From: a phage
Strand: one strand, 5' to 3'
DNA: 64,000 nucleotides
NCBI GenBank assembly: GCA_024613925.1
Contig: GCA_024613925.1_4713.1
Both the position numbers and the translations under genes were made by a program. Shown here one piece after another: positions 5,189 through 39,226 of this stretch (positions within the stretch are counted from its first letter, which is position 1; each line of letters begins with the position of its first letter). Under the pieces are notes generated by a model, which was not told where the DNA came from, ran no database searches, and was given only the letters and a program-made list of their open reading frames with translations.

Positions 5189-6295
5189 TTAACGAATCTG
5201 TGGGACGTTTCCGGTACGGAGCGCCTGGAGGATCGTCAGAAGATCGGAACCCGAGGTTGACGAACTGTTGGATTTTTCCAGTTGCTTGAAGCTTACGGTG
5301 GTCCCTTGATCCAAGCTGTGGAAATAGAAGGTCACCATCTCTTCAGCTTCGTCGATGATGATCAACTGCATTGCGAGGGCTTCAGCCATGACTTTCTGAC
5401 GTGTGGTATAGTCAGATAAACGACGTCCGATCTTACGCTCGATGGCTTCCTGGTTAGCCTTAGAGATGATATAGGTGGAGGCGATGGCTCCAGAAGAAGG
5501 GATCTTTGTGCTCGCTGCAGCTTTTGCGGCATTGATGCGCGCAGCATTAACAGCCTTACGGATACCCTCTTTATCCATGCGTGAGATTCGTTTGTGTTCA
5601 CGAACCAGATCGCTAAGCAGGATCATATCGCTCCAGAAAGACAGCTCACCGGCCATCATGCGATGCCAACGTGCTCGCCAGGTGTTCTGTGGACCGCCGA
5701 TCGCTAAAATCGACGCAAGCACTTCCGCTGGTGAACTTGCGATACGCATGCTGATATTCAGCGGCATTTTCATCGTTGCCTGACCATCGGTCAGCGTCAC
5801 GGTTAAGAACTTCCCGGTGACCGCATTCGCATCTTTGTTCAGCAATTCGATCGCCGCGTCGCTGGCTCCAACATCGAGGCTATTTTTTTGTTTCCCCTGC
5901 AGGTTGAATCCTTTGCCGTCAAGGAAAACAAGGCTTTTGCTATCCGCACTTTCCAGCGCTAATTTAATAGCCTTATCCGTCAGGTTAGCGTTACGGTTTG
6001 GATTCACGCGACCCAGCGTTTTATCGACACTGATATTACCCACCTGCATGATGGTGTTCAACGCCAGTAAATAGAACCCGGTATACATGTTTTCAGCGGT
6101 GCGCATGCAGTTGCCTAACGCATTGCGTGCGTCGCTATAATACAACTCACGTTCAAAGATCAGCGGTGCGATAACGCGTGAAGGTTGTGAGAGTTCAACC
6201 AGCGAACCTGGCTGGATAAGTTTATTAACTTCGTAGACTTTAGCGATACCGGACGCAACAACGTTAACAGCGTCGGCAATTTCTGATGCTACCAT
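5189..6295 (-). CDS. Hypothetical structural protein (capsid-related candidate, unverified)
   Basis: 368-aa ORF with AAGGA ribosome-binding site; no diagnostic motif recognised. Confidence 0.5.
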   Translation of the reverse strand: MVASEIADAVNVVASGIAKVYEVNKLIQPGSLVELSQPSRVIAPLIFERELYYSDARNALGNCMRTAENMYTGFYLLALNTIMQVGNISVDKTLGRVNPNRNANLTDKAIKLALESADSKSLVFLDGKGFNLQGKQKNSLDVGASDAAIELLNKDANAVTGKFLTVTLTDGQATMKMPLNISMRIASSPAEVLASILAIGGPQNTWRARWHRMMAGELSFWSDMILLSDLVREHKRISRMDKEGIRKAVNAARINAAKAAASTKIPSSGAIASTYIISKANQEAIERKIGRRLSDYTTRQKVMAEALAMQLIIIDEAEEMVTFYFHSLDQGTTVSFKQLEKSNSSSTSGSDLLTILQALRTGNVPQIR

Positions 6296-6329
6296 ATTGA
6301 AATCCTTATTTACAAATAAAGGAAAGAAA

Positions 6330-7535
6330 ATGTCTAATTACTACGACCAAGCTATTCAAACCATTCAGGAGAATAATGCGTCGTTAACACCCGAAGCTGT
6401 GGAGGCAGCGGGCAATGCGGTGTTATTCACTGATTCGGATTGGGCAATAGCGCGGAAGAATATTCGTACCAGTGTCGGTCAAGGGACATACGAGGACAGT
6501 ATCGCCAGACGGTATCGGAATGTTTCACCTATTCCAGGGAACAGCCCGATTCCGATTAACCGCGATCATGCCGGTATTACCTTCTTCACACGACCTAATT
6601 TACATCTTACCGACGCGAACTTAAAACGAGATCGACGTTTGTGGTCGTTACGCACGGATAACCCTAACAGTATTCAGGCTGTTGTCCGCGACTACTTGGA
6701 CCCTGTGGGTGCCAGAAAGCGGAACCATCGAGGACGTGCCATCGTCGATGAGCGCAATCCATTCATAAGTATACTGACGGACAACCTGACGGATATCAGC
6801 GGTTTCAATGACATGGAAATGCAGGTCTATCAGGGCAAACCGGGATTACGCCAAGAAACCGTTGTGATGGCTGACGGTTCAGTGGATATGTTTCAACCCT
6901 ATAACCTGAACGCGACGTTCAAGAACATCATGGGTAACCCCATCATGTTCCTTCATTATATTTGGTTGATTTACATCGCTGGTGTGCATAATGGCGAACT
7001 GACGCCAAGCCCTCAGGCCATCATCGATAACGAAATGGATTACTGGACAAGATGTTATCGTATCATCTTGGATCCGACTGGGATGTATGTTCGTTATATC
7101 TTCGCACCGACCGCGATGTTTCCTGTCGGGTTACCGATCGGTAATATGGCTAACTACAGCATCGATAAACCCTTCACGCAGGATAACGAACGTATCACTA
7201 TCCCATACCAAGCGGTTGGTAATAACGCATTCGATGAAATTCTGAAGGATGAATTCAATCGACTTGTCTTGATGTTCTATTACGGTGAGAACGATACCCG
7301 TACGTTCCTTGAAGATGAGGAGTTGGTACCTATCTCACCCTACGAACGTCGAATCATGTCGTATCGTGTCGATATGTATCCATTTATTCATCCGTTGACC
7401 TCAGAGCTTCTTTGGTTCGTACCCGCTGATGATTACAACGAATTCTATCTGGATCTTGAGCCGTCGGCGTTACCACCGGATACGTTCAGTCGCGATCTTG
7501 TCCGAACCACCATTCCGCAAAATTACGAGGGATAA
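6330..7535 (+). CDS. Hypothetical protein
   Basis: Track ORF 6297..7535 begins with TTG; ATG at 6330 preceded by AAGGAAAGAAA is the better start. Confidence 0.6.
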   Translation: MSNYYDQAIQTIQENNASLTPEAVEAAGNAVLFTDSDWAIARKNIRTSVGQGTYEDSIARRYRNVSPIPGNSPIPINRDHAGITFFTRPNLHLTDANLKRDRRLWSLRTDNPNSIQAVVRDYLDPVGARKRNHRGRAIVDERNPFISILTDNLTDISGFNDMEMQVYQGKPGLRQETVVMADGSVDMFQPYNLNATFKNIMGNPIMFLHYIWLIYIAGVHNGELTPSPQAIIDNEMDYWTRCYRIILDPTGMYVRYIFAPTAMFPVGLPIGNMANYSIDKPFTQDNERITIPYQAVGNNAFDEILKDEFNRLVLMFYYGENDTRTFLEDEELVPISPYERRIMSYRVDMYPFIHPLTSELLWFVPADDYNEFYLDLEPSALPPDTFSRDLVRTTIPQNYEG

Positions 7536-7538
7536 TAA

Positions 7539-10532
7539 ATGAGCGTAACCAACAAAGATCTTGCTGAACAGCTCAATCGCTATATGCTTTCACCTATTGA
7601 AATGCAGGCTGTTGCAAGCGATATGATTCGTTTGGCCTCTGATGGCGAGTTAACCCTGGTTGACCCCAGCTGTCCGTTTGTTTATCTGCTGGAGGTTGCA
7701 ACAGCAACGGCGGCGAACCAGAACGCACGAGATGAGTCCCGTGTTCGCGAACTGTATCCGAAGCTTGCAACCAACTGGAGCCAGCTCTATCGTTGGATGT
7801 ATGACGAGTCGTACGTCGGACGTTTCGCAATGCCGGGTAAAACGGAAATCATTTATTCGTTAGGGTATCAGGAAATCCTCGACCGGGCTGTAGAGATTCC
7901 CAACACCATCGCCTCCGATGATTTAAGCCGTTCTTACAGCCGTAAGTTAGTGATACCACGTACGACGGCGTTTACGGTAGCCGGAATGGATTTCGGGTTG
8001 CATTATCCCATCGAAATCCAAGTACAGGCGCACGATCAGATACGCGTTGTTTATAACACCGATAACATCAGCCCGTTGCAAACCTTGGAGAGTAACCAAG
8101 TTGAGTACGGGGTTGTTCGCGTAAAAGCGGGTAAAGTGTTGGTGATGCGTATCCCGCTGTTCCAGTTTAAAACGCTGGTAAAAGATGTGCCGTTTAACAG
8201 CGTTCACGGGATGAACAGCAGCATTACCTTCGAAGATCAGTTTTACCATTGTCGTGCGTACATGTCGTCGGACAACGATACCTGGACGGAGATAGCGACA
8301 ACACACAGCCAGCAGATCTACGATCCGTTAACACCAACCATCGCGTTACAAGTAGAAGGGAACAAACTGAACTGGCGTGTTCCTGAAATTTATTTGTCTC
8401 AAGGTACGATGGATAAAAGCACCATTCGACTTGAGGTGTTGACGACGAAAGGGAAAATCAGCGTCGACCCGTCTGATTACGACGTGACCGATTGGAAAGA
8501 TAACTACATCGATTTGTCGCCAAAAGCCGAACAGAAATACAGTGCGCCGCTAAGTGCGTTCAATATTAAAGGGATTTATAGTGAAGGGGCATTGTCGGGT
8601 GGACGATCTGCGTTAACGTTCGAGGAACAACGTGAACGCGTTATGGCGGGCGTGAACAAAACCAAGGTGCCGATCACAGGAACGCAGGTAGAGCTGGTGC
8701 TTCAAGATGCGGGTTATGGGATGGTGACCACCATCGATAACGTAACCAATCGTTCGTTCCTGGCAACCCGAGATTTACCGCAATTGAGCGACAGCGTGCC
8801 GCAAGCCGGTTCGTTGATGGGGTCTTTCTATACGTCAGCCGCAGCATTGGTGAAAAGTAAGTTTGTCGCTGATAACGGCGATCGTATTACGATTAAACCG
8901 GATTGCTTGTATCGTGACAGTAACGGAAGTATCGCGCTGTTGTCGGACGATGAAATTGACCGTATTAATGCAGGCAACTCCGATGCGAAGTTGAACGCGG
9001 TAAACAACACCATGTTGTTTTACAGTCCGTTTCATTACGTATTAGACGCAACAAGCGATTTCGACATCCATGCTTATTACCTGGATGCCCCTAAGATCGG
9101 CACACAAGCATTCCTCGACGCGAACGAGACAATCCCGTTAACCGCTATGGTGACCGGATACCGTCTGGATCGTATCGCTGAAGGATATCGTCTAAGCCTC
9201 ATTGTAGAAGGTAACGACGCATGGAAGGCGCTCGACGATAAAAACGTGCACATCCAGCTGGGGTTCAATCCGCGGGGTGAGGGCGATTATGCGACGATGT
9301 TGGCGTCACCGACAACCGATGAACAAGGTCGTCGTTTGTTCACCTTCGATATCACCACGAATTATGATTTTACGCGGATCCTGGCCGATGATTCCACGGC
9401 GTATGAACCGTATATCGCACTGACTTCGTTCTCGATGTATGAATCAACACCGCGGGATTATTGGGCATCACTGCAGCAGTATTTGGAAATCTTCCATGTG
9501 GTGACGGATTACGCACCGGAAGATGTCGACGGTATTTTACACAGTGCTTCCGATAATTACCTGGTTAAGAAACTTACGCTTCAAAATGGGTATTGTTTCT
9601 ACCGTGAACGTCTCACCGCAACCTTTGGTTATGATCTGGATGGCCTTTGGATGCGTTCTCGTACGGTGGCCTCGGAGATCACGTATAAACGTTACACCGA
9701 GAACATCCCGTGGGTGTATGACGAAGACATTCCAGCGACGGATGAGACCGGTTCGGTTATCATCGAGCAAGGTGATGATGGTACGTTGTCGGTTAAATAT
9801 CTGCATCGTAAAGGTGACCCGAAATTAAACAGTGATGGAAGCCAAGCCTATCGTTATCTGAAAGGCGACATCATGAAAGATAATTACGGTAATCCGATCC
9901 CTGTCGATGAACGTGAGGTTCTGCGTAACCTGGACATGTTCTTTATCGATGCGTCGTATCTGCTCGCGAACGATACGGACGTGATTGACTATCGTAACAC
10001 GATTCCTACACAGCTTATTGAGTGGATTCAGAACGATATCAGCACGTTCAGGAATTTCTGTTATGAGGAAACAGCGATTTCACTGTATCCTAAGCAATCG
10101 CTGGGGTATGTGGATGTTATTGTGGAAAACGGATTGGAAACAACGCTTCCTGCTGCCTTATCGTTCAACGTGACGCTTTACTTACCGGCTAAGCAATACG
10201 CAGACTTGGATCTACGTCAAGTCCTTCAAGCGATGGTATCGAAAGTCATCAATGAATGTTTAACATCCCGTACGGTGGCTAAAGCAGAAATGATCGCGAT
10301 GATTCGTGAAGAGGGTGGTGACGACATCCTGAACGTTGAAATCGATGATTTTGGACCAGGTAAGAACCTCAGTGTTTATACCGCGAAGAACGATGGTGTT
10401 CGTTGTGCGGTGAAGAAAGAGCTTTATGTGAAAGCGGATGGTATCTTGTCCGTACGCGAAGCGATTGATGTGAATTTTGTGAAACACGCACAAAGCAACA
10501 GTTCAGCGCTAGCGCAAGGCCTTCGTGTCTAA
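7539..10532 (+). CDS. Large hypothetical protein (997 aa)
   Basis: Long ORF, GAGGGA ribosome-binding site, immediately follows 6330..7535. Confidence 0.6.
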   Translation: MSVTNKDLAEQLNRYMLSPIEMQAVASDMIRLASDGELTLVDPSCPFVYLLEVATATAANQNARDESRVRELYPKLATNWSQLYRWMYDESYVGRFAMPGKTEIIYSLGYQEILDRAVEIPNTIASDDLSRSYSRKLVIPRTTAFTVAGMDFGLHYPIEIQVQAHDQIRVVYNTDNISPLQTLESNQVEYGVVRVKAGKVLVMRIPLFQFKTLVKDVPFNSVHGMNSSITFEDQFYHCRAYMSSDNDTWTEIATTHSQQIYDPLTPTIALQVEGNKLNWRVPEIYLSQGTMDKSTIRLEVLTTKGKISVDPSDYDVTDWKDNYIDLSPKAEQKYSAPLSAFNIKGIYSEGALSGGRSALTFEEQRERVMAGVNKTKVPITGTQVELVLQDAGYGMVTTIDNVTNRSFLATRDLPQLSDSVPQAGSLMGSFYTSAAALVKSKFVADNGDRITIKPDCLYRDSNGSIALLSDDEIDRINAGNSDAKLNAVNNTMLFYSPFHYVLDATSDFDIHAYYLDAPKIGTQAFLDANETIPLTAMVTGYRLDRIAEGYRLSLIVEGNDAWKALDDKNVHIQLGFNPRGEGDYATMLASPTTDEQGRRLFTFDITTNYDFTRILADDSTAYEPYIALTSFSMYESTPRDYWASLQQYLEIFHVVTDYAPEDVDGILHSASDNYLVKKLTLQNGYCFYRERLTATFGYDLDGLWMRSRTVASEITYKRYTENIPWVYDEDIPATDETGSVIIEQGDDGTLSVKYLHRKGDPKLNSDGSQAYRYLKGDIMKDNYGNPIPVDEREVLRNLDMFFIDASYLLANDTDVIDYRNTIPTQLIEWIQNDISTFRNFCYEETAISLYPKQSLGYVDVIVENGLETTLPAALSFNVTLYLPAKQYADLDLRQVLQAMVSKVINECLTSRTVAKAEMIAMIREEGGDDILNVEIDDFGPGKNLSVYTAKNDGVRCAVKKELYVKADGILSVREAIDVNFVKHAQSNSSALAQGLRV

Positions 10533-18858: not shown

Positions 18859-19080
18859 ATTACACTCTCTAAATTCACGTAAATTTAAGGGTTAATGGAT
18901 CGGCTGGCCGCACCAATCACAATGTGTTCGTTGCTATGCAACGGCATTCATAGAAATACCTTTTGACGGTAACATCACCTTTCACACCCCAAGCGATAAG
19001 AGTGGTCGGTTAAAAACAACAGAACGTGGGGATGATATAGAAAATCACCTTTTTAACACTTATTACGAGTTTATCAAGCC

Positions 19081-20580
19081 ATGAGCGAACAAGAACGAAA
19101 ACCTAAGAAGAAACTGCTCGGTATTCAATGTCGACACATCAGCTATAACGAAGCGAACGATGGCAGCAAGAACGACCTCATGATCGCAAAAGAGATCATG
19201 TTCTTTGATGATAATACGCAAGCGACGAACCTTCGCTTCTTCGAGAATTACAAACGTCCGTTTTGGGTGACGGTAGAGAGTAAACGCAAGAACAAATATA
19301 AAAAGGAAAGCGAGAAGCTATCGCATGTGCGTCGCTACGATGTCCGTCAAAGTGAACTGGTTGAAAAGATCAGTTCGGTGCTTTATAAAAGACGTGCTGA
19401 TGATAACACCCGTTTACAACAGCTTGCACGGAGTCCCTACCTCTATGGCACGGACGTTAGCGCCAGCTGTTATTTAAAAACCCAATACAATACAAAATGG
19501 CCGGAATACGTCGATAAATTACCTGCTTCCATTGCCTGTTTCGATATCGAAACCGACGTTGTCCACGGGCACGGTAAGATCGTCTGTATGTCTATTACAA
19601 TGGGATACAATGCGATACTTTGCTATACCAAGGACTTCGTTGGTCATATTCCGAATGCGATTGAGAAAACCCATGAGAAGATTCGATATTACCTGGCCGA
19701 ACGTCTGAACACCAAAGAAGATCCGCACGCATTTGAAAAATACCAATACGATGTTCGAATCGTAGAAAGTCCAGCACAAGCGGTCATCCAATGCATGCAG
19801 AAGGTTCACGAATGGCAACCGGATTATCTCCTTGGCTGGAATATCGCGTTCGATATTCCGCGTATGCTCCAGGCACTGAACGAGGAAGGGTATCGTCCCG
19901 AGGATGTTTTCTCCGATCCTCGTGTACCACCTAAATACCGTATTGCTCGCTGGGTGCCACCGAAGACCGACAAGGTATCTGCTTCAGGTCGTAAAACCAA
20001 CCTTACCCTTGAGCAAACCTGGCCGATGTTTTATACGATGGCCACGTATCAGGTTATGGATGCGATGTGTGGTTATAAGTTCGTTCGTTTAGGAAGACCG
20101 GATGAGGGACGCTATTCACTCGATGCGGTATTAGAGCGAAATAAATGCCATACGAAATTAAAAGCAATTCCTGGTACAGAAGGGTTCACAGAGCTCGCCT
20201 GGCACGAAGAGATGCAAACGAACCATCAAATCGACTACGGCGTATATAACCTTTGGGATAACCAAGGCATCGAGGCGTTGGACCAGAAAACAAAAGACTA
20301 TTCGATGACCATCCCTATTCGTTTGGCGGCGTCGGATTTGAAAGATTTCAGTTCTAACCCTAAACGTATCTGCGATAAACTTTTCTTCGTTTATCTTAAC
20401 CGTGGGGAAGTCATGGGATGCACCGCCGACGATATGACTCAGGAAGAAGATAAGTGGGTTATCTCACGAACCGGACATATCGTCACATTACCATGCGATC
20501 TCATGGCGGACAACGGCATTCATCTCTTCTGGGATATGCCGAACCTGAGAAGTTATATTCGATTATTTGTTGCGGATTAA
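19081..20580 (+). CDS. Family-B (T4 gp43-like) DNA polymerase N-terminal plus 3'-5' exonuclease fragment
   Basis: Exo I CFDIETD, Exo II GWNIAFDIP (cf. T4 GWNIEGFDVPYI), Exo III block NHQIDYGVYNLWD (cf. T4 NHQRYISYNIIDV); GHIVTLP then FWD at residue 485 resembles the pre-motif-A region; ORF stops before any fingers, motif B/C or thumb. Confidence 0.7.
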   Translation: MSEQERKPKKKLLGIQCRHISYNEANDGSKNDLMIAKEIMFFDDNTQATNLRFFENYKRPFWVTVESKRKNKYKKESEKLSHVRRYDVRQSELVEKISSVLYKRRADDNTRLQQLARSPYLYGTDVSASCYLKTQYNTKWPEYVDKLPASIACFDIETDVVHGHGKIVCMSITMGYNAILCYTKDFVGHIPNAIEKTHEKIRYYLAERLNTKEDPHAFEKYQYDVRIVESPAQAVIQCMQKVHEWQPDYLLGWNIAFDIPRMLQALNEEGYRPEDVFSDPRVPPKYRIARWVPPKTDKVSASGRKTNLTLEQTWPMFYTMATYQVMDAMCGYKFVRLGRPDEGRYSLDAVLERNKCHTKLKAIPGTEGFTELAWHEEMQTNHQIDYGVYNLWDNQGIEALDQKTKDYSMTIPIRLAASDLKDFSSNPKRICDKLFFVYLNRGEVMGCTADDMTQEEDKWVISRTGHIVTLPCDLMADNGIHLFWDMPNLRSYIRLFVAD

Positions 20581-20648
20581 GAAATAAATCGGTTAAGTAT
20601 TACTACTCTGTTCGATGGTTATGGGATAACCAAATGGAGTAGTCATGC

Positions 20649-21755
20649 ATGAATAAATGGTATTTACCAGAGGCACGTTTTAAATACTACGCAACTGACG
20701 ATGGTCTTTTCCATTCAACTGGAGAGGCTGTTCCGGTTACCGTTAAAGATGGTATCTCGTATGTCGAGATCGACTGGTATCGTGGTCTAGGTCTATATGA
20801 CGCCGGACTCGCTGTTATGTGTGCGTTGAGAGCGATAAACATACCAATCTACTTACTTGATCAAGCATATTCTCTTTACATTGACGGGAATCCTGAGAAT
20901 GTAAAACGTGAGAACCTGCTTTACCGTTTCAAAGGCGGTAGGTTGGAAGTACCTGGATGTCCCGGCTATTATTTCATCCCCTTCCATTCTCGTTATGCTA
21001 TTAACGAGGAAGGTTTGGTGATCAATGTCGAGACGGGGTTCGAAAAACGCTGGTCGCAAATGAAACCTAACAAGAAACAAAAGACCCATGGCGGTTACGT
21101 TTACCAACGTACGGTAAATGATAACGGATTCACATCCCAGCTTTATCAGCATCGTGCTATGGGTTACGTGTTTCTTGAATACGGTGCCGACGTTATGGAT
21201 AAGACAATAAACCATAAGAACGGCATCAAATGGGATAATCGTCCATGTAACATTGAGTGGGCAACGTATACGGACAATAATAAGCATGCGGTTGATAGCG
21301 GTCTTCGTACAGAAGGATTGCATCCTGTTAAGGTTAAGGATTACAACACCGGTGAAGTCAGGGTATTCCCTTCAATCGCTGCGTGTTGTGCTGCTTATCC
21401 ATGCTTGGAACGTAAACGTGTTTGGTATTGGATGACGCGTAAAACGAAATTCATGCCAGCCTGCAATCTGTATTTCAAAGAAGTTGACGATGATACCCCA
21501 TGGCCAGATTGGCAGATCGGACAGCCTCGTCGTCTTCAAGAATATACGATGCCTAACCCTATCGCAGCTATCGATAAACAAACTGGTAAACGTTATGTGT
21601 TTGCATCAATTGCTCACGCACAACGAGAGACAGGTGTTTCTAACGTGACTATCATGAAGTACTGTCGTAATAGGCTTACAGAAGGTCGTTCTCCATTCAT
21701 CTTCCGCTATTTTGAAGATGTTAGTTCGATGCCTGTAGGCCTTAACGACGCTTAA
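20649..21755 (+). CDS. HNH homing endonuclease (HNH_3 type)
   Basis: INHKNGIKWDNRPCNIEWATYTDNNKH matches the H-N-(DNR)-N-H signature; C-terminal G.RVFPSIA / GKRYVFASIAHA repeats resemble intron-encoded nuclease DNA-binding modules. Confidence 0.8.
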   Translation: MNKWYLPEARFKYYATDDGLFHSTGEAVPVTVKDGISYVEIDWYRGLGLYDAGLAVMCALRAINIPIYLLDQAYSLYIDGNPENVKRENLLYRFKGGRLEVPGCPGYYFIPFHSRYAINEEGLVINVETGFEKRWSQMKPNKKQKTHGGYVYQRTVNDNGFTSQLYQHRAMGYVFLEYGADVMDKTINHKNGIKWDNRPCNIEWATYTDNNKHAVDSGLRTEGLHPVKVKDYNTGEVRVFPSIAACCAAYPCLERKRVWYWMTRKTKFMPACNLYFKEVDDDTPWPDWQIGQPRRLQEYTMPNPIAAIDKQTGKRYVFASIAHAQRETGVSNVTIMKYCRNRLTEGRSPFIFRYFEDVSSMPVGLNDA

Positions 21756-21789
21756 CCGATTTTAGGTCCCGGTGGGGATAACGCCCCCA

Positions 21790-22114
21790 CCGGATTCCCG
21801 TTAATTGCTGGAACCCCCTAAAGCCTTTCGACCACAGCGGATTCTGAAAAGAAAAACGTCAAGGTTAGAAAACAGAAAGGATGTTCGTAAGGAAACGATA
21901 AATGGGCAATCAGCAGCGAAGCTTCTAAGGGCCTGCATTAGCAATAAGACCTAAGAAGAACGTTCAACGACTATCCGGTCGCGCGGAGTAAGGGACAAGC
22001 GTCCCCAAACACGGGAGGGGTGCGAAAGCATTCCATGATATAGTCTGCTCCTAAGTGAAAGCTTAGGCGGGTGGTACACACCGGCATAAGAGTTGCGTCT
22101 TATGTGGACAATGG
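21790..22114 (+). ncRNA. Group I intron-like ribozyme core
   Basis: Q-like AATCAGCAGC (21908-21917), R-like GTTCAACGACTA (21962-21973) and S-like GATATAGTC (22037-22045) in the canonical order; P7 GACTA/TAGTC pairing; P9-like hairpins CCTAAG..CTTAGG and CATAAGA..TCTTATG. Confidence 0.5.
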
Positions 22115-22369
22115 CTTGACATTTCTTCAAGTTATCCCAACGGGCAGATACTGCTCAATCTATCCAGAGCATGTGTTTTTCGTGAGCTCTCGCGCATTGA
22201 GGGCGTCTCTGACTATCAATTCAGGAAGTTAGGTATCAACTTTATTACCGGAGGTAAAACGAACGCTGTAGACTTCTGTAGAATCGTTTATAAAGCGCCA
22301 TCGATGTTTGAACTCTTAGAACATTTCGATGCGACGCGTCCAAAAGAGGAAGCGCGGACCATCGAATGA
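22115..22369 (+). CDS. Putative 3' exon (start-less ORF) of the interrupted polymerase gene
   Basis: Frame with no stop from 22067 to TGA at 22367-22369 and no start codon; translation ..QWLDISSSYPNGQILLNLSR.. contains a motif-A-like DxxSxYP; a terminator hairpin follows. Confidence 0.3.
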   Translation, partial: LDISSSYPNGQILLNLSRACVFRELSRIEGVSDYQFRKLGINFITGGKTNAVDFCRIVYKAPSMFELLEHFDATRPKEEARTIE

Positions 22370-22455: not shown

Positions 22456-22941
22456 TTATGCGTGTTCGTTGCCAACCTTCACTTTGTAATCAGCGTCGGT
22501 TAAGAAAATAGACAGGAATCCATGTTCTTTGCAAATCTGACTAAGGATGTCAGCAATGATTTCGTTGATCATCGGTTTGTTTGCAAGGGCATAGATGTAC
22601 CCGGGTGTAAAAGAAAGTGCATGATTGATCATAGGCTCATGAGAAGCCAAGATAAGGATCACGTGATGCTTCCCATCGTCGGTAACGACCGCTTGCGTAG
22701 ACACGAAGAAATCAGTGAAGCAGCAGCGATCACAGGCTTTAGGTATATACAAATCACCCAGAGCTTCGTCGCGTGCTTTTATGTGTGTTTCAGGGGTGAT
22801 GCTGCTAAGTTGATCTTCAGCGAGATCCAAGACATCCTCAATCGTTTTAAGAATAGCGTTGCGGAAATCCTCGCGGTAGAATGGGATGATATCACGATCG
22901 TTCATGTAATCGCCGGATTCGATAGTAAAGTTGATGTTCAT
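22456..22941 (-). CDS. Small hypothetical protein (array member 1)
   Basis: 161-aa ORF with AGGAG ribosome-binding site. Confidence 0.5.
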   Translation of the reverse strand: MNINFTIESGDYMNDRDIIPFYREDFRNAILKTIEDVLDLAEDQLSSITPETHIKARDEALGDLYIPKACDRCCFTDFFVSTQAVVTDDGKHHVILILASHEPMINHALSFTPGYIYALANKPMINEIIADILSQICKEHGFLSIFLTDADYKVKVGNEHA

Positions 22942-23011
22942 TGAATGCTCCTAGTGGTTATGTCGATTGATTGATGTATTGATTTATGTTTGAAGGTGTT
23001 GTTCACCTTCG

Positions 23012-23479
23012 TTAGATATCATCATCCGTGGTGCCGTAGGACATATGCTGAATTAATTTTCTCGGCTCGATGAAAATACGACATGTGATAAACACATCGG
23101 GATCGTATTGCTCCACGCAACGTCCGAAGGCTTGTTTTGCGGCTTGACGCACCGATGTTATTTCCTGATCGTTCATCGCATTATCGAATTCGATGTTGAT
23201 CGTGATTTTATCGGGAAATAAATAGATAAAGTAATCGCCACTGATACCACCATCATCAAAGTGACGTTCATTGTAACACTGGACGAGCTTACCTTCACGT
23301 TCTTTCTGATACCATCCAAGGATACTATTAAGACCTCTGTCCACGCATTCGAATGCTTGAGTAATAACATCCTCAACGACGGAGGCTGCCGTGGGACCAT
23401 TGAATAGACGATCTAAGCGCTTTTTCATCGATTTGTCGGTTTTCATGTTCATTGTTTCTTTTCCTGTTATAGTCAACAT
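23012..23479 (-). CDS. Small hypothetical protein (array member 2)
   Basis: 155-aa ORF. Confidence 0.5.
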   Translation of the reverse strand: MLTITGKETMNMKTDKSMKKRLDRLFNGPTAASVVEDVITQAFECVDRGLNSILGWYQKEREGKLVQCYNERHFDDGGISGDYFIYLFPDKITINIEFDNAMNDQEITSVRQAAKQAFGRCVEQYDPDVFITCRIFIEPRKLIQHMSYGTTDDDI

Positions 23480-23529
23480 ATAGCCCTTCCCCGGCCTTGA
23501 CGGCTAGGGAAGGGTATGTTTACGTGTAA

Positions 23530-23925
23530 TTACTCTTTGACGTCAGTTGTCGTTTCGACATGCTTCTCACTACTGACGTACCAGAGCAGGTACGTTGGGA
23601 AAAGATTGACCTCTAAGCTAAATGGGATATTGTATTTCTCTTCCATTTTACAGAGATGTTCTTTAAGTAAATTTCTCGCGTCTCTGTCACCACGAACAGA
23701 GTGCCAGTCTAGTTCTTTGTTCTCCTTTACCAGGACCTCTACGATGATACGTTGCTCGTGAACCTCGGTTTTCACAGTGAAAAGTAAATCGCTGCTATCA
23801 AAACGGGTAAAACGAATGTATGAGCCAGGTGTTTTTTCTTGTTTAATAATATCGATCATGGTAGAAATGCGCGGATGATCGATGTTGTCGTTAACAGCTT
23901 TAACGATGGATTCTACAATGCTCAT
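23530..23925 (-). CDS. Small hypothetical protein (array member 3)
   Basis: 131-aa ORF. Confidence 0.5.
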   Translation of the reverse strand: MSIVESIVKAVNDNIDHPRISTMIDIIKQEKTPGSYIRFTRFDSSDLLFTVKTEVHEQRIIVEVLVKENKELDWHSVRGDRDARNLLKEHLCKMEEKYNIPFSLEVNLFPTYLLWYVSSEKHVETTTDVKE

Positions 23926-24084
23926 TTTTTTTATCCTTAATGTTATCGGTTTAGAAATATTACTTAAATATTGTTTTATTTATCGATGGTTGTTACCCAT
24001 GATGGGAAAGCCGGATGGAAACAGAGCGTGAACGTAACCTTCGTATCGTATTTAATCGCTGAACTTTATCTTTGATAGACATGA

Positions 24085-24543
24085 TTACCCCTTAGCTCCT
24101 TCTTCGTCTGGAGAGTATTCCATCGTGTAGAATTCATAACCATCGGAAAACTTGAGTGTTAATGTAATAGGGAAATCGCACGGCATAGCTGATTTCGTAA
24201 ATGCGTTATTAGCAACATCAGCCAACCGACGTATAGCATCAACCCCGCTGACGCTGAATGGTAGTTGTATGTTGATAAGGATACGATGCTTGTAAACATA
24301 GAAAACAACGGTACTGTCGAGATAAACGCTATGGAACGGTATTGTTGGGATGCGTTCCACAATGGTAAAATACGTCCCGTCATTATCGCTATGCCCCATC
24401 GACCAAATATCGGATTTGCGTAGATTTTGTTTGAGGGATTCGATACTTCGAGTGACGGTCTCAGCAACAGGCGTGACGTAAGTGTCTCTATGCGAGTCGA
24501 AAAGTTCGTTGACGTTAGATTCGAATGAATACATTGTTGCCAT
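24085..24543 (-). CDS. Small hypothetical protein (array member 4)
   Basis: 152-aa ORF, GAGG ribosome-binding site. Confidence 0.5.
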   Translation of the reverse strand: MATMYSFESNVNELFDSHRDTYVTPVAETVTRSIESLKQNLRKSDIWSMGHSDNDGTYFTIVERIPTIPFHSVYLDSTVVFYVYKHRILINIQLPFSVSGVDAIRRLADVANNAFTKSAMPCDFPITLTLKFSDGYEFYTMEYSPDEEGAKG

Positions 24544-24609
24544 TTTCTACCTCAATAGTTTAACCGGCACGTGTCCCCACCTAACAAGGGACACGATATC
24601 GTTGATTAA

Positions 24610-25110
24610 TTACTCTTCTGTGTTTTCATTGTCAGGATCGTAGTGGAATTCGAACAGCCCTGAACCGTCGTGTCCGTTGATTGTTAGTATAACGGGCATA
24701 TCGAATCCTCGGACGCGCGAATGAAAACACTGTGCTAATTTGAGTTTGGCGTATGCCACTATTTCATTGACGGCAATGCACGACTCACCTGTTATACTCA
24801 GTATAACGTCGATACTAACAATGTTGTCGTGCAACGCAAAACGCCAACGATCGATACGAGTATTATCTTTAGCGGTTGTCTCGTTTACGAGATAGACTTT
24901 ATCATCAACCGACAAAGCGGGACTCCAGCAACGTTCGTTTATTAAATTCGCCTGGAGTTTTAGTATCGTCTGATCGATAATATCCCAACACGTAACCAGC
25001 GTGACGTCAGGCACTGAGTAGAGAAGGGCGAGCACTTTATCCTTTATTTTAGGTGTCTCTGCAGGACGTCCGCAAATACCATGCATTTCAACTTTCTTAT
25101 TCATATTCAC
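24610..25110 (-). CDS. Small hypothetical protein (array member 5)
   Basis: 166-aa ORF. Confidence 0.5.
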   Translation of the reverse strand: MNMNKKVEMHGICGRPAETPKIKDKVLALLYSVPDVTLVTCWDIIDQTILKLQANLINERCWSPALSVDDKVYLVNETTAKDNTRIDRWRFALHDNIVSIDVILSITGESCIAVNEIVAYAKLKLAQCFHSRVRGFDMPVILTINGHDGSGLFEFHYDPDNENTEE

Positions 25111-25148
25111 TTCTTTCTTAATCTAAATGTTAGTTGGGGATGGGATGC

Positions 25149-25781
25149 TTACATGCTTTCTAGCATATTGACGATCATGGAACCCATACCGAAACTCGGT
25201 CTCTCACCGATATACTCAGCAAGTTGACGGTGTACGTCTTTTGGATTTCCTTCTTCACCATCGGCATCGATGTAGACCGAAAAAGAAACCGAATCGGAAT
25301 CCACGCTGATAACCAGACGACGTTCATTGCGTTCCTTGAGCGTGTCGACGATAGATGCTTTCAGTACCGGGATCGCATTCATCGCGTGCAAGATATCTCC
25401 ATCGGGTTTCGGCAGATCGATCTTTTCTTTCAGGTCGATATTGATGTTGGTTACAATTGGGTTGAGGTCGACCTTGACATAATCGTTGGGATACATGCGA
25501 ATAATCGCACGATCGATATCTGAACCGTAAAAGTCAACACGTAGCTTTAACACTTCTTTGTTTGGATCCATGTTTTCATCCATACCCGCCTGCAAGAAAC
25601 GTTCTACGTTATCCAGTTCACGATAAACTGACGCTTCGATTTCTTTCAGATAGTTGGCTGCGGTTTCATGTTCCTTACGTAGCTCGTCTTTAAGGAGCTG
25701 TACGGTGGTTTCACTGGAACGAATGCTGTTCGCGAATTGGGTAATTGACATATTGAATTCCTTAAATTCTCTTGAGTTCAA
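25149..25781 (-). CDS. Small hypothetical protein (array member 6)
   Basis: 210-aa ORF, AGGAA ribosome-binding site. Confidence 0.5.
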   Translation of the reverse strand: MNSREFKEFNMSITQFANSIRSSETTVQLLKDELRKEHETAANYLKEIEASVYRELDNVERFLQAGMDENMDPNKEVLKLRVDFYGSDIDRAIIRMYPNDYVKVDLNPIVTNINIDLKEKIDLPKPDGDILHAMNAIPVLKASIVDTLKERNERRLVISVDSDSVSFSVYIDADGEEGNPKDVHRQLAEYIGERPSFGMGSMIVNMLESM

Positions 25782-25799
25782 TTAATGATGAAAAGCTGT

Positions 25800-25827
25800 A
25801 AAAAAAAAAGGTGGGGCGAACCCCACC
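25800..25827 (-). terminator. Rho-independent terminator (minus strand)
   Basis: GGTGGGG cgaa CCCCACC hairpin followed on the minus strand by a 10-nt U run; directly after the stop of 25853..26278. Confidence 0.65.
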
Positions 25828-25852
25828 AAAACGTCAGACACACGCAGGAAAA

Positions 25853-26278
25853 TTAATTCAGTGATGCATATAAGGCATAACGACTGTAGATCTCAACCGC
25901 CGGTCCGTTATGGGTTAACAGACCATCCTGGCTGTAATACTGGAAAAATGAATAACGTTTGTCGAAGTGATAAACAAAAGCAATGTCTTTGCCGTCAAAA
26001 CCCATGACGCGCGGCCTGTTTTTATCTAGCAACGCTTTGACTTTTAACAGTGTTGCCGCACGCGCTTTAACATTAGGGATTAATCCATCACAATCGATAT
26101 AAACCGTGTAACCTGTTTCAGATGTTGCGACGGTTGTATTGCGATTGACGCGAAAGATTTTTGTTTTGTACGTATCATCTTCAAGAATTGGGTTTTGTTT
26201 TTCGTATTTTCGTTTACGTAGAAATTCTACAACGGTGATATAGTTAGCGGTAATATGCCCGGTTATAGCTTGTAACAT
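25853..26278 (-). CDS. Small hypothetical protein (array member 7)
   Basis: 141-aa ORF; shares its 5' leader with gene 54730..55047. Confidence 0.5.
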   Translation of the reverse strand: MLQAITGHITANYITVVEFLRKRKYEKQNPILEDDTYKTKIFRVNRNTTVATSETGYTVYIDCDGLIPNVKARAATLLKVKALLDKNRPRVMGFDGKDIAFVYHFDKRYSFFQYYSQDGLLTHNGPAVEIYSRYALYASLN

Positions 26279-26289
26279 CTCGACATCCT

Positions 26290-26317
26290 TTTATATTGGA
26301 TTGATTGCAATTGTCTT
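26290..26317 (-). promoter_or_regulatory. Sigma70-like promoter candidate (AAGACA, 16-nt spacer, TATAAA) with conserved leader
   Basis: About 30 nt including the TATAAA and AAAGGATG ribosome-binding site identical to the leader of gene 54730..55047. Confidence 0.3.
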
Positions 26318-26449
26318 AAATAGATGATAAGATATTTTGCTCTTATCATTAAGGTAACGCTTACGCGTCGCGTTCATGATGTCATGCATCATGAAGGTAA
26401 TGTAGTCGTGAAATAAACTGCGTTAACACGAAATAAAACAGCATAGAAC

Positions 26450-26480
26450 CCTCTCCCAACCCGTAAGGGAAGGGAGAGGG
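26450..26480 (-). terminator. GC-rich hairpin, inverted copy of the 2264..2295 element
   Basis: CCCTCTCCCAACCCGTAAGGGAAGGGAGAGGG preceded by GCATAGAA. Confidence 0.4.
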
Positions 26481-26493
26481 AATATTAAAATTG

Positions 26494-26949
26494 TCACTTT
26501 ATATTGAACGCTTTTCGCAACGCATTAAGAACTAAATTAATTTCTTGCGCTTGTAACTTTAATCCCTGTGCTGAGCCATCAAACCCAAGCCAACGCCATA
26601 CAAGGCATTTTACAGGTTTGTTGTTATCGTCGATACTATATGTGATCTCCAGTGTACTTTGATACGCGTAGTCACCATGTGTTTTCAGCGACTGATTGAA
26701 ATAAATATCAAATGCTTCTTCTATAGCCTGTTTACCGCGATCGTTACAAACAAACGCGATGTATCCGTCGGAATATCCAACTTCCTCTGGATGTCCTTGG
26801 CAGGAGAAAATACTGATGGCGTCTTGCTGAGCAAGATTGAACACCGTGAAGAAATCACCAAATAAAGGATCGAGATTTAATGCGTTGTTATCGATAAGGT
26901 TCCTTACCGCTTTACGGTATTCTCCCAGACTATTGTTCGCTGTAAACAT
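26494..26949 (-). CDS. Small hypothetical protein (array member 8)
   Basis: 151-aa ORF. Confidence 0.5.
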   Translation of the reverse strand: MFTANNSLGEYRKAVRNLIDNNALNLDPLFGDFFTVFNLAQQDAISIFSCQGHPEEVGYSDGYIAFVCNDRGKQAIEEAFDIYFNQSLKTHGDYAYQSTLEITYSIDDNNKPVKCLVWRWLGFDGSAQGLKLQAQEINLVLNALRKAFNIK

Positions 26950-26959
26950 TCTTTTACCT

Positions 26960-27361
26960 TTAAATATCGTGGATAGCGGTGCCGTTTAGCCAACAATACA
27001 ACTTAATGCGACACGGATAGCGATTCGTAGCCAAGAGCAGTTCGTCGCGTAAACGCTGGTAGATTTCATCCTGGTGTTCACGATCAATTGGGTAATCAGC
27101 CCAACATTCGATCATGACGTCACCATTCGTCAGAATCGTCGTACGCATCCTGTCCTGGATACGGCGGTCTTTCCCGGCATTAGGGAAATACATTCCTTCA
27201 GTACGAATAAGGTCGCCGCAGGGCATGACTAACCATTCGTTCGTTTTGCCGGTATTCTTATAATCCATTACGGCTTGCATTGCGGTGTCAACGCTAAAAG
27301 AAACATAATTCCAAACGGATGTCCAACGATAGATTGCGGGTTGTTCGAGTGTTTCGTTCAT
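26960..27361 (-). CDS. Small hypothetical protein (array member 9)
   Basis: 133-aa ORF; possible TTGAAT-17-TAAAAA promoter upstream. Confidence 0.5.
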   Translation of the reverse strand: MNETLEQPAIYRWTSVWNYVSFSVDTAMQAVMDYKNTGKTNEWLVMPCGDLIRTEGMYFPNAGKDRRIQDRMRTTILTNGDVMIECWADYPIDREHQDEIYQRLRDELLLATNRYPCRIKLYCWLNGTAIHDI

Positions 27362-38641: not shown

Positions 38642-39226
38642 TTACACAGTTGTAGGAAATTCCGGCCAATCGATATTTGGTGCTGTTGATGTGTCAACGC
38701 GATGCAGAGCCACCCGATACTTTTTCCATGCCGTCAACATGGACACCTCTTCTTCCGTTGCGATCTCCAGATCCACAGCATCCTGAAGTGGCGTAATATG
38801 ATCATTCGCCGCCTTCATCAGACTGTTTTTTGTTTCTTCCGCCTCCCGGATCCGGAACAGTTTTTCTGCTTCCGTATCCTTCACCCAGGCTGTGCCGTCC
38901 CACTTCTGAAACTCCCCTTCCGGCGATAACCAGGTAACATTTTCCGGTAACGGACCGAGTTCAGAAATAAATAACGCGTCGCCGGAAGCCACGTCATAAA
39001 CCGTTTTACCCCGATGATCTTCAACGAGATGCCACGATTCATTTTCATTGTTAAAAACTGCCACAAAACCAGCAGGAATTTCCGGTGGGGCGATATCTGT
39101 AGAATTAGCTGGCAGACCTGTATGAGGCGGAATATATGCATCACCTTCACCAATAAATTCATTAGTTCCGGCCAGCAGATTATAAATTTTTATGGTCCGT
39201 GGTTGTTCACTCATTCTGAATGCCAT
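38642..39226 (-). CDS. tfa: Tail fibre assembly protein (lambda Tfa family)
   Basis: [39 protein letters not shown]... matches the lambda/E. coli prophage Tfa chaperone as recalled from memory; directly follows the fibre gene with start/stop overlap. Confidence 0.85.

Follow-up and report, generated by a model that had tools for sequence, protein, structure and literature searches.

A putative mobile group I intron at catalytic motif A of the DNAP-N gene in a Goslar-like jumbo phage

Introduction

Family-B DNA polymerases split into two separately encoded proteins are already known from phages (Pfam PF20286; PHROGs 3011 and 2927; PMC7824862; PMC13648687). In PhiKZ, two proteins named 'DNA polymerase' form a stable 1:1 core of DNAP-N and DNAP-C, which is homologous to family B and has been solved at 2.1 Å; this core is boosted by Rhc, an RNase H and clamp-like subunit (Basu et al., bioRxiv 2026, PMC13648687). 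Here we analyze a 64,000-nt stretch of phage DNA (contig GCA_024613925.1_4713.1; hereafter the window), in which positions 19081–22369 very probably hold the DNAP-N gene of a chimallivirus two-subunit family-B polymerase, into which a mobile group I intron has been inserted. The ortholog in PhiKZ is PHIKZ082 (39% identity over 95% of the query by tblastn; both in PHROG 3011), and the partner family PF20286 is common to both phage groups; the relative Goslar also has an annotated RNase H protein, gp190. The two systems differ in that PHIKZ082 is contiguous over 1893 nt (~630 codons), which leaves room for a protein insertion of ~60 residues and not for an intron, and in that the biochemistry of the complex comes from PhiKZ and not from the Goslar group.

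Split polymerases of another kind occur in the Aeromonas T4-like phages 25 and 44RR, in which gene 43 is divided into 43A and 43B and the polypeptides co-purify and are active (Petrov et al. 2006, as cited in PMC2988022); according to the same secondary account, the split is associated with homing-endonuclease DNA. As far as that account describes them, the Aeromonas halves are adjacent cistrons with a short untranslated sequence or a seg gene between them and are close relatives of T4 gp43, whereas the Goslar halves lie ~95 kb apart, belong to a divergent clade and are split family-wide. With the gp43 of RB69 and T4, the window protein has in common the fold of the N-terminal and exonuclease domains and the order of Exo I–III followed by motif A; it differs in that gp43 is a single chain and the polymerase here would be formed by two.

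Group I introns that encode I-HmuI-like HNH nickases interrupt the polymerase genes of SPO1 and SP82, Bastille (I-BasI) and Pf-WMP3 (I-PfoP3I), and the gp210 intron of PhiPA3 lies in a chimallivirus RNA polymerase gene, where its endonuclease acts as a weapon in mixed infection (PMC11620839, PMC12908238). The window locus resembles these cases in carrying an intron of the self-splicing type, with an HNH/NUMOD ORF (open reading frame), beside the catalytic aspartates of an essential polymerase gene. It differs from them in its host gene, which is DNAP-N of a split family-B polymerase.

Results

Gene anatomy and the predicted exon junction

By its sequence, the window comes from a chimallivirus, that is, a nucleus-forming jumbo phage, related to Goslar (E. 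coli jumbo phage vB_EcoM_Goslar), with which it has 96% nucleotide identity and a conserved gene order. Window position 19081 corresponds to position 79690 of Goslar, where gp068 ('DNA polymerase') is followed by gp069 ('NUMOD1 domain protein'). The locus begins with a 5' ORF that has an ATG start (19081–20580, 499 aa), followed by a second ORF (20649–21755, 368 aa) and then by ~360 nt that contain no long ORF. A 3' reading frame closes the locus with the stop codon TGA at 22367–22369; the first start codon in this frame falls only within its last ~25 codons.

Three independent lines of evidence define how the outer two frames belong together. In the alignment with Goslar, identity is 96% up to position 20580 and 96% again from 22114, with the 1.5 kb between them nearly unalignable. 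A profile of 34 family members (profile A1) matches the window with its positions 4–485 in 19057–20577 and its positions 486–564 in 22067–22366, the two pieces abutting exactly. Finally, an uninterrupted 583-codon gene is found on a 237-kb ENA contig, and its product is identical at 581 of 583 residues to that of the 20577–22115 join; three further uninterrupted alleles code for the identical junction peptide, FVADLDISSSYPNGQ. The Goslar breakpoints, the profile and the uninterrupted alleles thus place the end of the 5' exon at ..GCG GAT and the start of exon 2 at CTT GAC, and they bear out the putative 3' exon of the initial annotation. The predicted spliced junction reads ..TTTGTTGCGGAT/CTTGACATTTCT.. 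(peptide ..VAD/LDISSSYP..; the slash marks the insertion point here and below), so that the intron lies between D499 and L500, two codons ahead of D501.

Exon 1 (19081–20577, plus strand; codons 1–499) comprises the N-terminal and 3'–5' exonuclease domains and the strand leading into motif A, ending in ..LFVAD; it matches PHROG 3011 'DNA polymerase' with E=1e-177. Exon 2 (22115–22369, plus strand; codons 500–583 and the TGA stop), assigned from its translation and profile A1, begins with LDISSSYPNGQ.. and contributes D501 and a family-specific C-terminal tail.

The intervening 1537 nt (20578–22114, plus strand), delimited by the uninterrupted alleles and by the abutting profile coordinates 485 and 486, form a group I intron. 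It opens with an in-frame TAA (20578–20580), closes with ..ATGG ending at G22114, and is preceded by U at position -1 of the 5' exon. The ribozyme core, P2–P9 (21742–22067, plus strand), matches Rfam RF00028 (Intron_gpI) at 73.4 bits (gathering score 50; E=5.9e-18). When a construct from which the ORF had been deleted was folded to minimum energy, it contained P2, P3, P4–P6, two hairpins, P8, P9 and two terminal hairpins. The two extra hairpins are placed between P7 and P3', an arrangement like that of the subgroup IA introns in T-even phages, and the terminal ones, P9.1- and P9.2-like by folding, occupy 22068–22114 (plus strand) together with the terminal G.

The Goslar gene harbors a group I intron at the same AD/LD site (L001, NC_048170, 5498–7259; record positions 81187–82948), homologous to the window intron and deeply diverged from it. 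For Goslar, two introns are annotated within RNA polymerase genes and none in gp068, which is recorded as 499 residues; its 84-codon exon 2 (record positions 82949–83203) is unannotated. The core of the gp068 intron scores 44.7 bits, below the Rfam cut-off of 50, which explains why the intron was missed, and as a result the annotated gp068 product lacks D501.

This bears on the possibility that splicing does not occur and that the 499-residue 5' ORF is the final product, the 3' segment being unused or made separately. GenBank lists gp068 in just this form, but the annotation gap is accounted for by the subthreshold score, and we regard such an arrangement as very improbable on several further grounds: the window intron core reaches the gathering score, uninterrupted alleles exist, and the 3' segment resumes the profile exactly at position 486 and is as conserved with Goslar as exon 1, whereas the 1.5 kb between them are not. 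In addition, that segment offers no start codon from which it could be made separately, and a 499-residue product would be without the catalytic D501.

Motifs, fold and family of DNAP-N

The hallmarks of family B follow one another in order: DxE of Exo I, NxxxFD of Exo II, YxxxD of Exo III and DxxSxYP of motif A. Their invariance was judged on the 34-member family alignment. Exo I is FDIETD (D155, E157; 19540–19557), Exo II is WNIAFD (N254, D258; 19837–19854) and Exo III is YNLWD (Y389, D393; 20245–20259), all on the plus strand and with invariant key columns; the profile aligns the second of these to the Exo II region of RB69 and the third to RB69 270–380, which includes YSLD and YNIID. Motif A is divided between the two frames, the 5' ORF ending in ..LFVAD and the 3' frame going on with LDISSSYPNGQ, and its residues D499, D501, Y506 and P507 are likewise invariant. 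Given this invariance, proofreading looks functional, and so does the portion of the polymerase site that motif A provides.

Single-sequence searches of PDB with DNAP-N gave nothing useful, and RB69 was reached only via profiles and fold comparison. The best PDB match of the family profile is RB69 gp43 (E=3.7e-6), and the alignment runs collinearly through Exo II, Exo III and motif A. Within this alignment, RB69 404–431 (YKYVMSFDLTSLYPS..) is paired with ..hvaDLDvsssYPn.., which equates D501 with RB69 D411. An AlphaFold model of DNAP-N has a predicted local distance difference test score of 83, high over residues 1–450 and low over 460–583. In a Foldseek search with this model the top match was again RB69 gp43 (E=4e-13, probability 1.00), followed by Pol epsilon, Pol II and T4 gp43.

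PHROG 3011 covers DNAP-N from end to end (residues 8–576 on positions 5–570 of 576), and homologs have 33–67% identity at 95–100% query coverage. Among the best 120 of 209 protein clusters, lengths are mostly 555–640 residues, with a subset of 457–545 residues that stops within or before motif A; the longest member has 703 residues, and none of these homologs is therefore fused to a polymerase C-half. The spliced window product ends 82 residues past D501, and all 34 aligned members end 75–130 residues past motif A. By tblastn the gene is present in 291 phage records, PHIKZ082 among them, from jumbo phages of Pseudomonas, Erwinia, Salmonella, Vibrio, Serratia, Aeromonas, Klebsiella and Ralstonia. 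The gene is thus that of DNAP-N in the layout standard for its family and codes for the N-terminal half of a split family-B polymerase; it is not a broken gene.

The partner subunit DNAP-C

Neither motif B, motif C nor a thumb is encoded in the 64-kb window: six-frame regular-expression searches found motifs B and C in no long ORF, and a DNAP-C profile had no match among the ORFs of all six frames. Apart from gp068, the complete Goslar genome has a single DNA-polymerase gene, gp244 (174314–176467, 717 aa), which adjoins the chimallin gene ~95 kb from gp068. Its product matches Pfam PF20286 (divDNApol, 'Divergent Family B DNA polymerase') with 681 bits and contains motif B as KLDNNSLSG, motif C as SDTDS and KxY as KNYY. 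Residues K152, N156, G160, D405, T406, D407, S408, K484 and Y486 are invariant in DNAP-C. By profile search DNAP-C is single copy in Goslar; it is also present on Goslar-like contigs of 234–235 kb, and all 112 DNAP-C clusters are stand-alone proteins of 687–796 residues. Goslar gp039, also named a polymerase, was considered for the missing half and rejected as unrelated, since it lacks motifs B and C, matches nothing in Pfam and belongs to a different PHROG (2943).

A PDB search with the single DNAP-C sequence returned nothing useful. The DNAP-C profile aligns to RB69 at 438–505, covering the palm strands that follow motif A as well as the beginning of the fingers, and at 706–756, the KxY region. 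The break between the halves accordingly lies just after motif A, at about RB69 431–438, a placement that is approximate since the local alignments are weak. Some 60 residues at the tail of DNAP-N and ~78 at the head of DNAP-C have no RB69 counterpart.

The initial annotation had described the locus as a fragmented polymerase encoding only the N-terminal and exonuclease part with a possible motif A, and the ORFs and motif residues at 19081–22369 were found as claimed, as was the absence of fingers, motif C and thumb. Its statement that coding ends about 100 residues after Exo III applies to the 5' ORF alone, which ends 106 residues past D393; with exon 2 the distance is 190 residues. For the catalytic half it had offered two explanations, of which a separate gene elsewhere is supported by gp244 and by the 1:1 core of PhiKZ. 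The other, an exonuclease-only derivative, taken here together with a decaying relic that has no role in polymerization, agrees with a window that encodes nothing beyond motif A, yet it has very little probability left. Throughout the 34-member sample, motif A retains D499, D501, Y506 and P507, which would not be kept in an exonuclease-only protein; 291 phage records share the architecture, 555–640 residues long across the family; Goslar has, in single copy, a C-half that fits it and bears motifs B and C; the PhiKZ counterparts form a polymerase core; and 74 of the 76 nucleotide differences among the window, Goslar and an intron-less allele are synonymous, which points to strong purifying selection. 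'Fragmented' therefore implies damage where the layout is the norm of a whole phage family.

Split inteins join the halves of split family-B polymerases in some archaea, but covalent joining into a single-chain enzyme, whether by a split intein or by RNA trans-splicing, is most improbable here, as DNAP-N proteins differ in how long their C-terminal tails are and in tail sequence, and share no intein block there (alignment columns 701–755), DNAP-C begins with a conserved MxNPF and no intein C-block, and two subunits in a stable 1:1 complex are reported for the PhiKZ enzyme.

The intron-encoded endonuclease and a candidate guide sequence

The second ORF (20649–21755, plus strand) encodes a predicted 368-aa I-HmuI-like HNH homing endonuclease with NUMOD1, assigned by Pfam and PHROG. 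It matches Pfam HNH_3 with 30.5 bits (cut-off 24.8), NUMOD1 with 24.5 bits (cut-off 22.8) and PHROG 59 'HNH endonuclease' with 1.4e-20; the match to I-HmuI_NUMOD-like, at 18.8 bits, is under the cut-off of 27. A single-sequence search against PDB structures gave no match. The protein is 43% identical to Goslar gp069, and the combination of similar introns with highly divergent ORFs is like that reported for the hydroxymethyluracil phages. Upstream of the ORF, a predicted hairpin (20597–20648, plus strand) holds its Shine-Dalgarno sequence GGAG (20636–20639, 9 nt upstream of the ATG) in base pairs; it folds at -21.4 kcal/mol (z = -4.1), and none of 200 shuffles folds as well. From this fold, the hairpin may act as a regulator of the endonuclease ORF.

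Turning to splice-site recognition, a candidate internal guide sequence, AGGUCC, lies directly 5' of P2 (21764–21769, plus strand), and the same hexamer occupies the equivalent place in the diverged Goslar intron. Its GUCC could pair with GGAU of the exon as P1, and its AG with CU of exon 2 as P10. In the minimum-energy fold, the exon end is paired instead with a distant sequence, and several candidate guide sequences are present.

Intron polymorphism among Goslar-like phages

In a protein collection, the exact 499-aa 5' ORF of the window occurs on 139 contigs, many of them labeled E. coli or Salmonella, the Goslar-type ORF on 51 contigs, and uninterrupted 583-aa forms on 71 and 19 contigs. 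We also observed that Goslar-like DNAP-N is present on well over 200 contigs, many belonging to E. coli or Salmonella enterica isolate assemblies (up to 259 kb). Complete RefSeq E. coli genomes contained no copy of the DNAP-N gene. Goslar-like phages seem to accompany the isolates, their genomes being either carried along or contaminants.

Of the eight alleles read, four have the intron (the window, Goslar and two IMG/VR contigs, one per intron type) and four lack it. Among phages that are ~96% identical, the site thus holds either of two deeply diverged introns, whose endonucleases are 43% identical, or no intron. Scanning IMG/VR with exact patterns did not turn up any intron-less junction, and the further intron-less alleles came from a degenerate pattern scan. 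Comparison of window positions 20557–20577 and 22115–22138 with alleles L007 and L016–L021 revealed a dimorphism of the flanks that is tied to the presence of the intron. The 5' flank reads ATT (C/A)GA TTA TTT GTT GCG GAT in all four intron-plus alleles and ATC CGT CTA TTC GTT GCA GAC in all four intron-less ones, the latter with six synonymous changes that include a C replacing the splice-site U. On the 3' side, the three serine codons are written as TCT TCA AGY, AGC TCA TCT or AGC AGT TCA, giving four synonymous arrangements that involve TCN/AGY switches. Of the 76 differences that separate the window from one intron-less allele, 23 are located no farther than 45 nt from the junction, where 2.9 are expected (P~8e-15), and all 23 are synonymous. 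This pattern would fit co-conversion of the flanks along with the intron, selection for intron-less sites that resist the endonuclease, or both, and the data do not favor any one of these. As a separate observation, allele L019 looks recombinant, having a 5' flank of the intron-less type and a 3' flank of the Goslar type.

Other insertion points in motif A

About 20 of the best 120 clusters stop within motif A, and several chimallivirus DNAP-N genes are interrupted there or close by. In L012, a 2.4-kb intron (5465–7898) occupies the AD/LD site, with a group I core below the gathering score. L011 is interrupted at ADLD/IVSTYP by an insert of ~420 nt that has no ORF (5477–5897) and no Rfam match at E<=0.001, and L014 is interrupted after ADLDVKSA (5471–5837), with a group I core at E=1.9e-6 that is again below the gathering score. 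In L013 the gene is interrupted at about 5460. Chimallivirus DNAP-N genes thus have at least two further insertion positions, ADLD/IVSTYP and after ADLDV-x-x-(A/G), and together with the AD/LD site of the window these make the seven-codon stretch of motif A an insertion hot spot.

L014 also contains two copies of exon 2 (5838–6032 and 7102–7296; peptides ~88% identical) that flank an HNH gene in reverse orientation (6081–7043), all of them 3' of the intron. The duplication looks like a remnant of endonuclease-mediated recombination.

Neighboring features of the window

Downstream of the DNAP-N gene lie small minus-strand ORFs, beginning at 22456–22941, as the initial annotation had noted. Nine such ORFs (131–210 aa) run from 22456 to 27361. 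Across Goslar-like genomes this run varies from 85–98% identity down to absence, and paralogy within it is limited to a single weak pair (21% identity, E=3e-5). A scan for sigma-70 promoters and terminators yielded hits at chance level only.

Elsewhere in the window, Rfam RF02111 ('IS009') matches 38685–38883 on the minus strand with 163 bits against a gathering score of 117. The match sits within a 194-aa ORF (38642–39226) that, judged by position and without alignment, is syntenic with the Goslar tail-fiber-assembly gene gp089. It is probably a tail-fiber-assembly coding sequence common to E. coli prophages and not a small RNA.

Discussion

We propose that the pre-mRNA of the window gene would splice itself, joining GCG GAT (20577) to CTT GAC (22115), and so give rise to a 583-residue DNAP-N in which the N-terminal domain would be accompanied by motif A of the palm and by a proofreading exonuclease that is intact. 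This subunit would then bind non-covalently to a DNAP-C of the Goslar gp244 type (~717 residues), which would supply the fingers with motif B, motif C and the thumb. The HNH endonuclease, for its part, would presumably spread the intron during co-infection by nicking the alleles of relatives that lack it, close to the insertion site.

Several points weigh against this proposal. We infer splicing in this phage from the gene sequence, not from observation, and the AGGUCC guide assignment is tentative, with a P1 of just 4–5 pairs and a P10 of 2. The DNAP-C partner is deduced from relatives, its gene lying outside the 64 kb, and the alignments that locate the break point are individually non-significant (domain i-Evalues 780 and 29). 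The C-terminal 120 residues of the DNAP-N model are of low confidence. The sequence similarity of DNAP-N to canonical family-B polymerases is also weak: identity to RB69 and T4 gp43 in the Foldseek alignments is 14–17%, and the match to Pfam DNA_pol_B_exo1 (PF03104), at 16.1–16.4 bits, is under the cut-off of 23. The close resemblance to T4/RB69 gp43 claimed in the initial annotation thus holds at the level of motifs and fold but not of sequence, and 'T4-type' overstates the likeness of what is a divergent clade.

The split polymerase being known, what is new here is modest: in Goslar-like phages, the catalytic motif of DNAP-N is the site of a mobile intron that is polymorphic and has gone unannotated. 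As a more speculative suggestion, and one we consider rather less probable than its negation, motif A may be a battleground of homing endonucleases, in which intron-less alleles represent recoded, cleavage-resistant sites and the introns serve as weapons in mixed infection, like that of PhiPA3 gp210 but aimed at the replicative polymerase.

For annotation, the consequence is that Goslar gp068 and many public copies are recorded as 499 residues without a catalytic aspartate, where the real product would have 583. The locus also provides a natural collection of alleles that carry an intron, lack it or have it swapped for another, all within an essential gene. As a nucleus-forming phage of E. coli or Salmonella of this kind can be grown, intron homing and endonuclease competition inside the phage nucleus would be directly testable.

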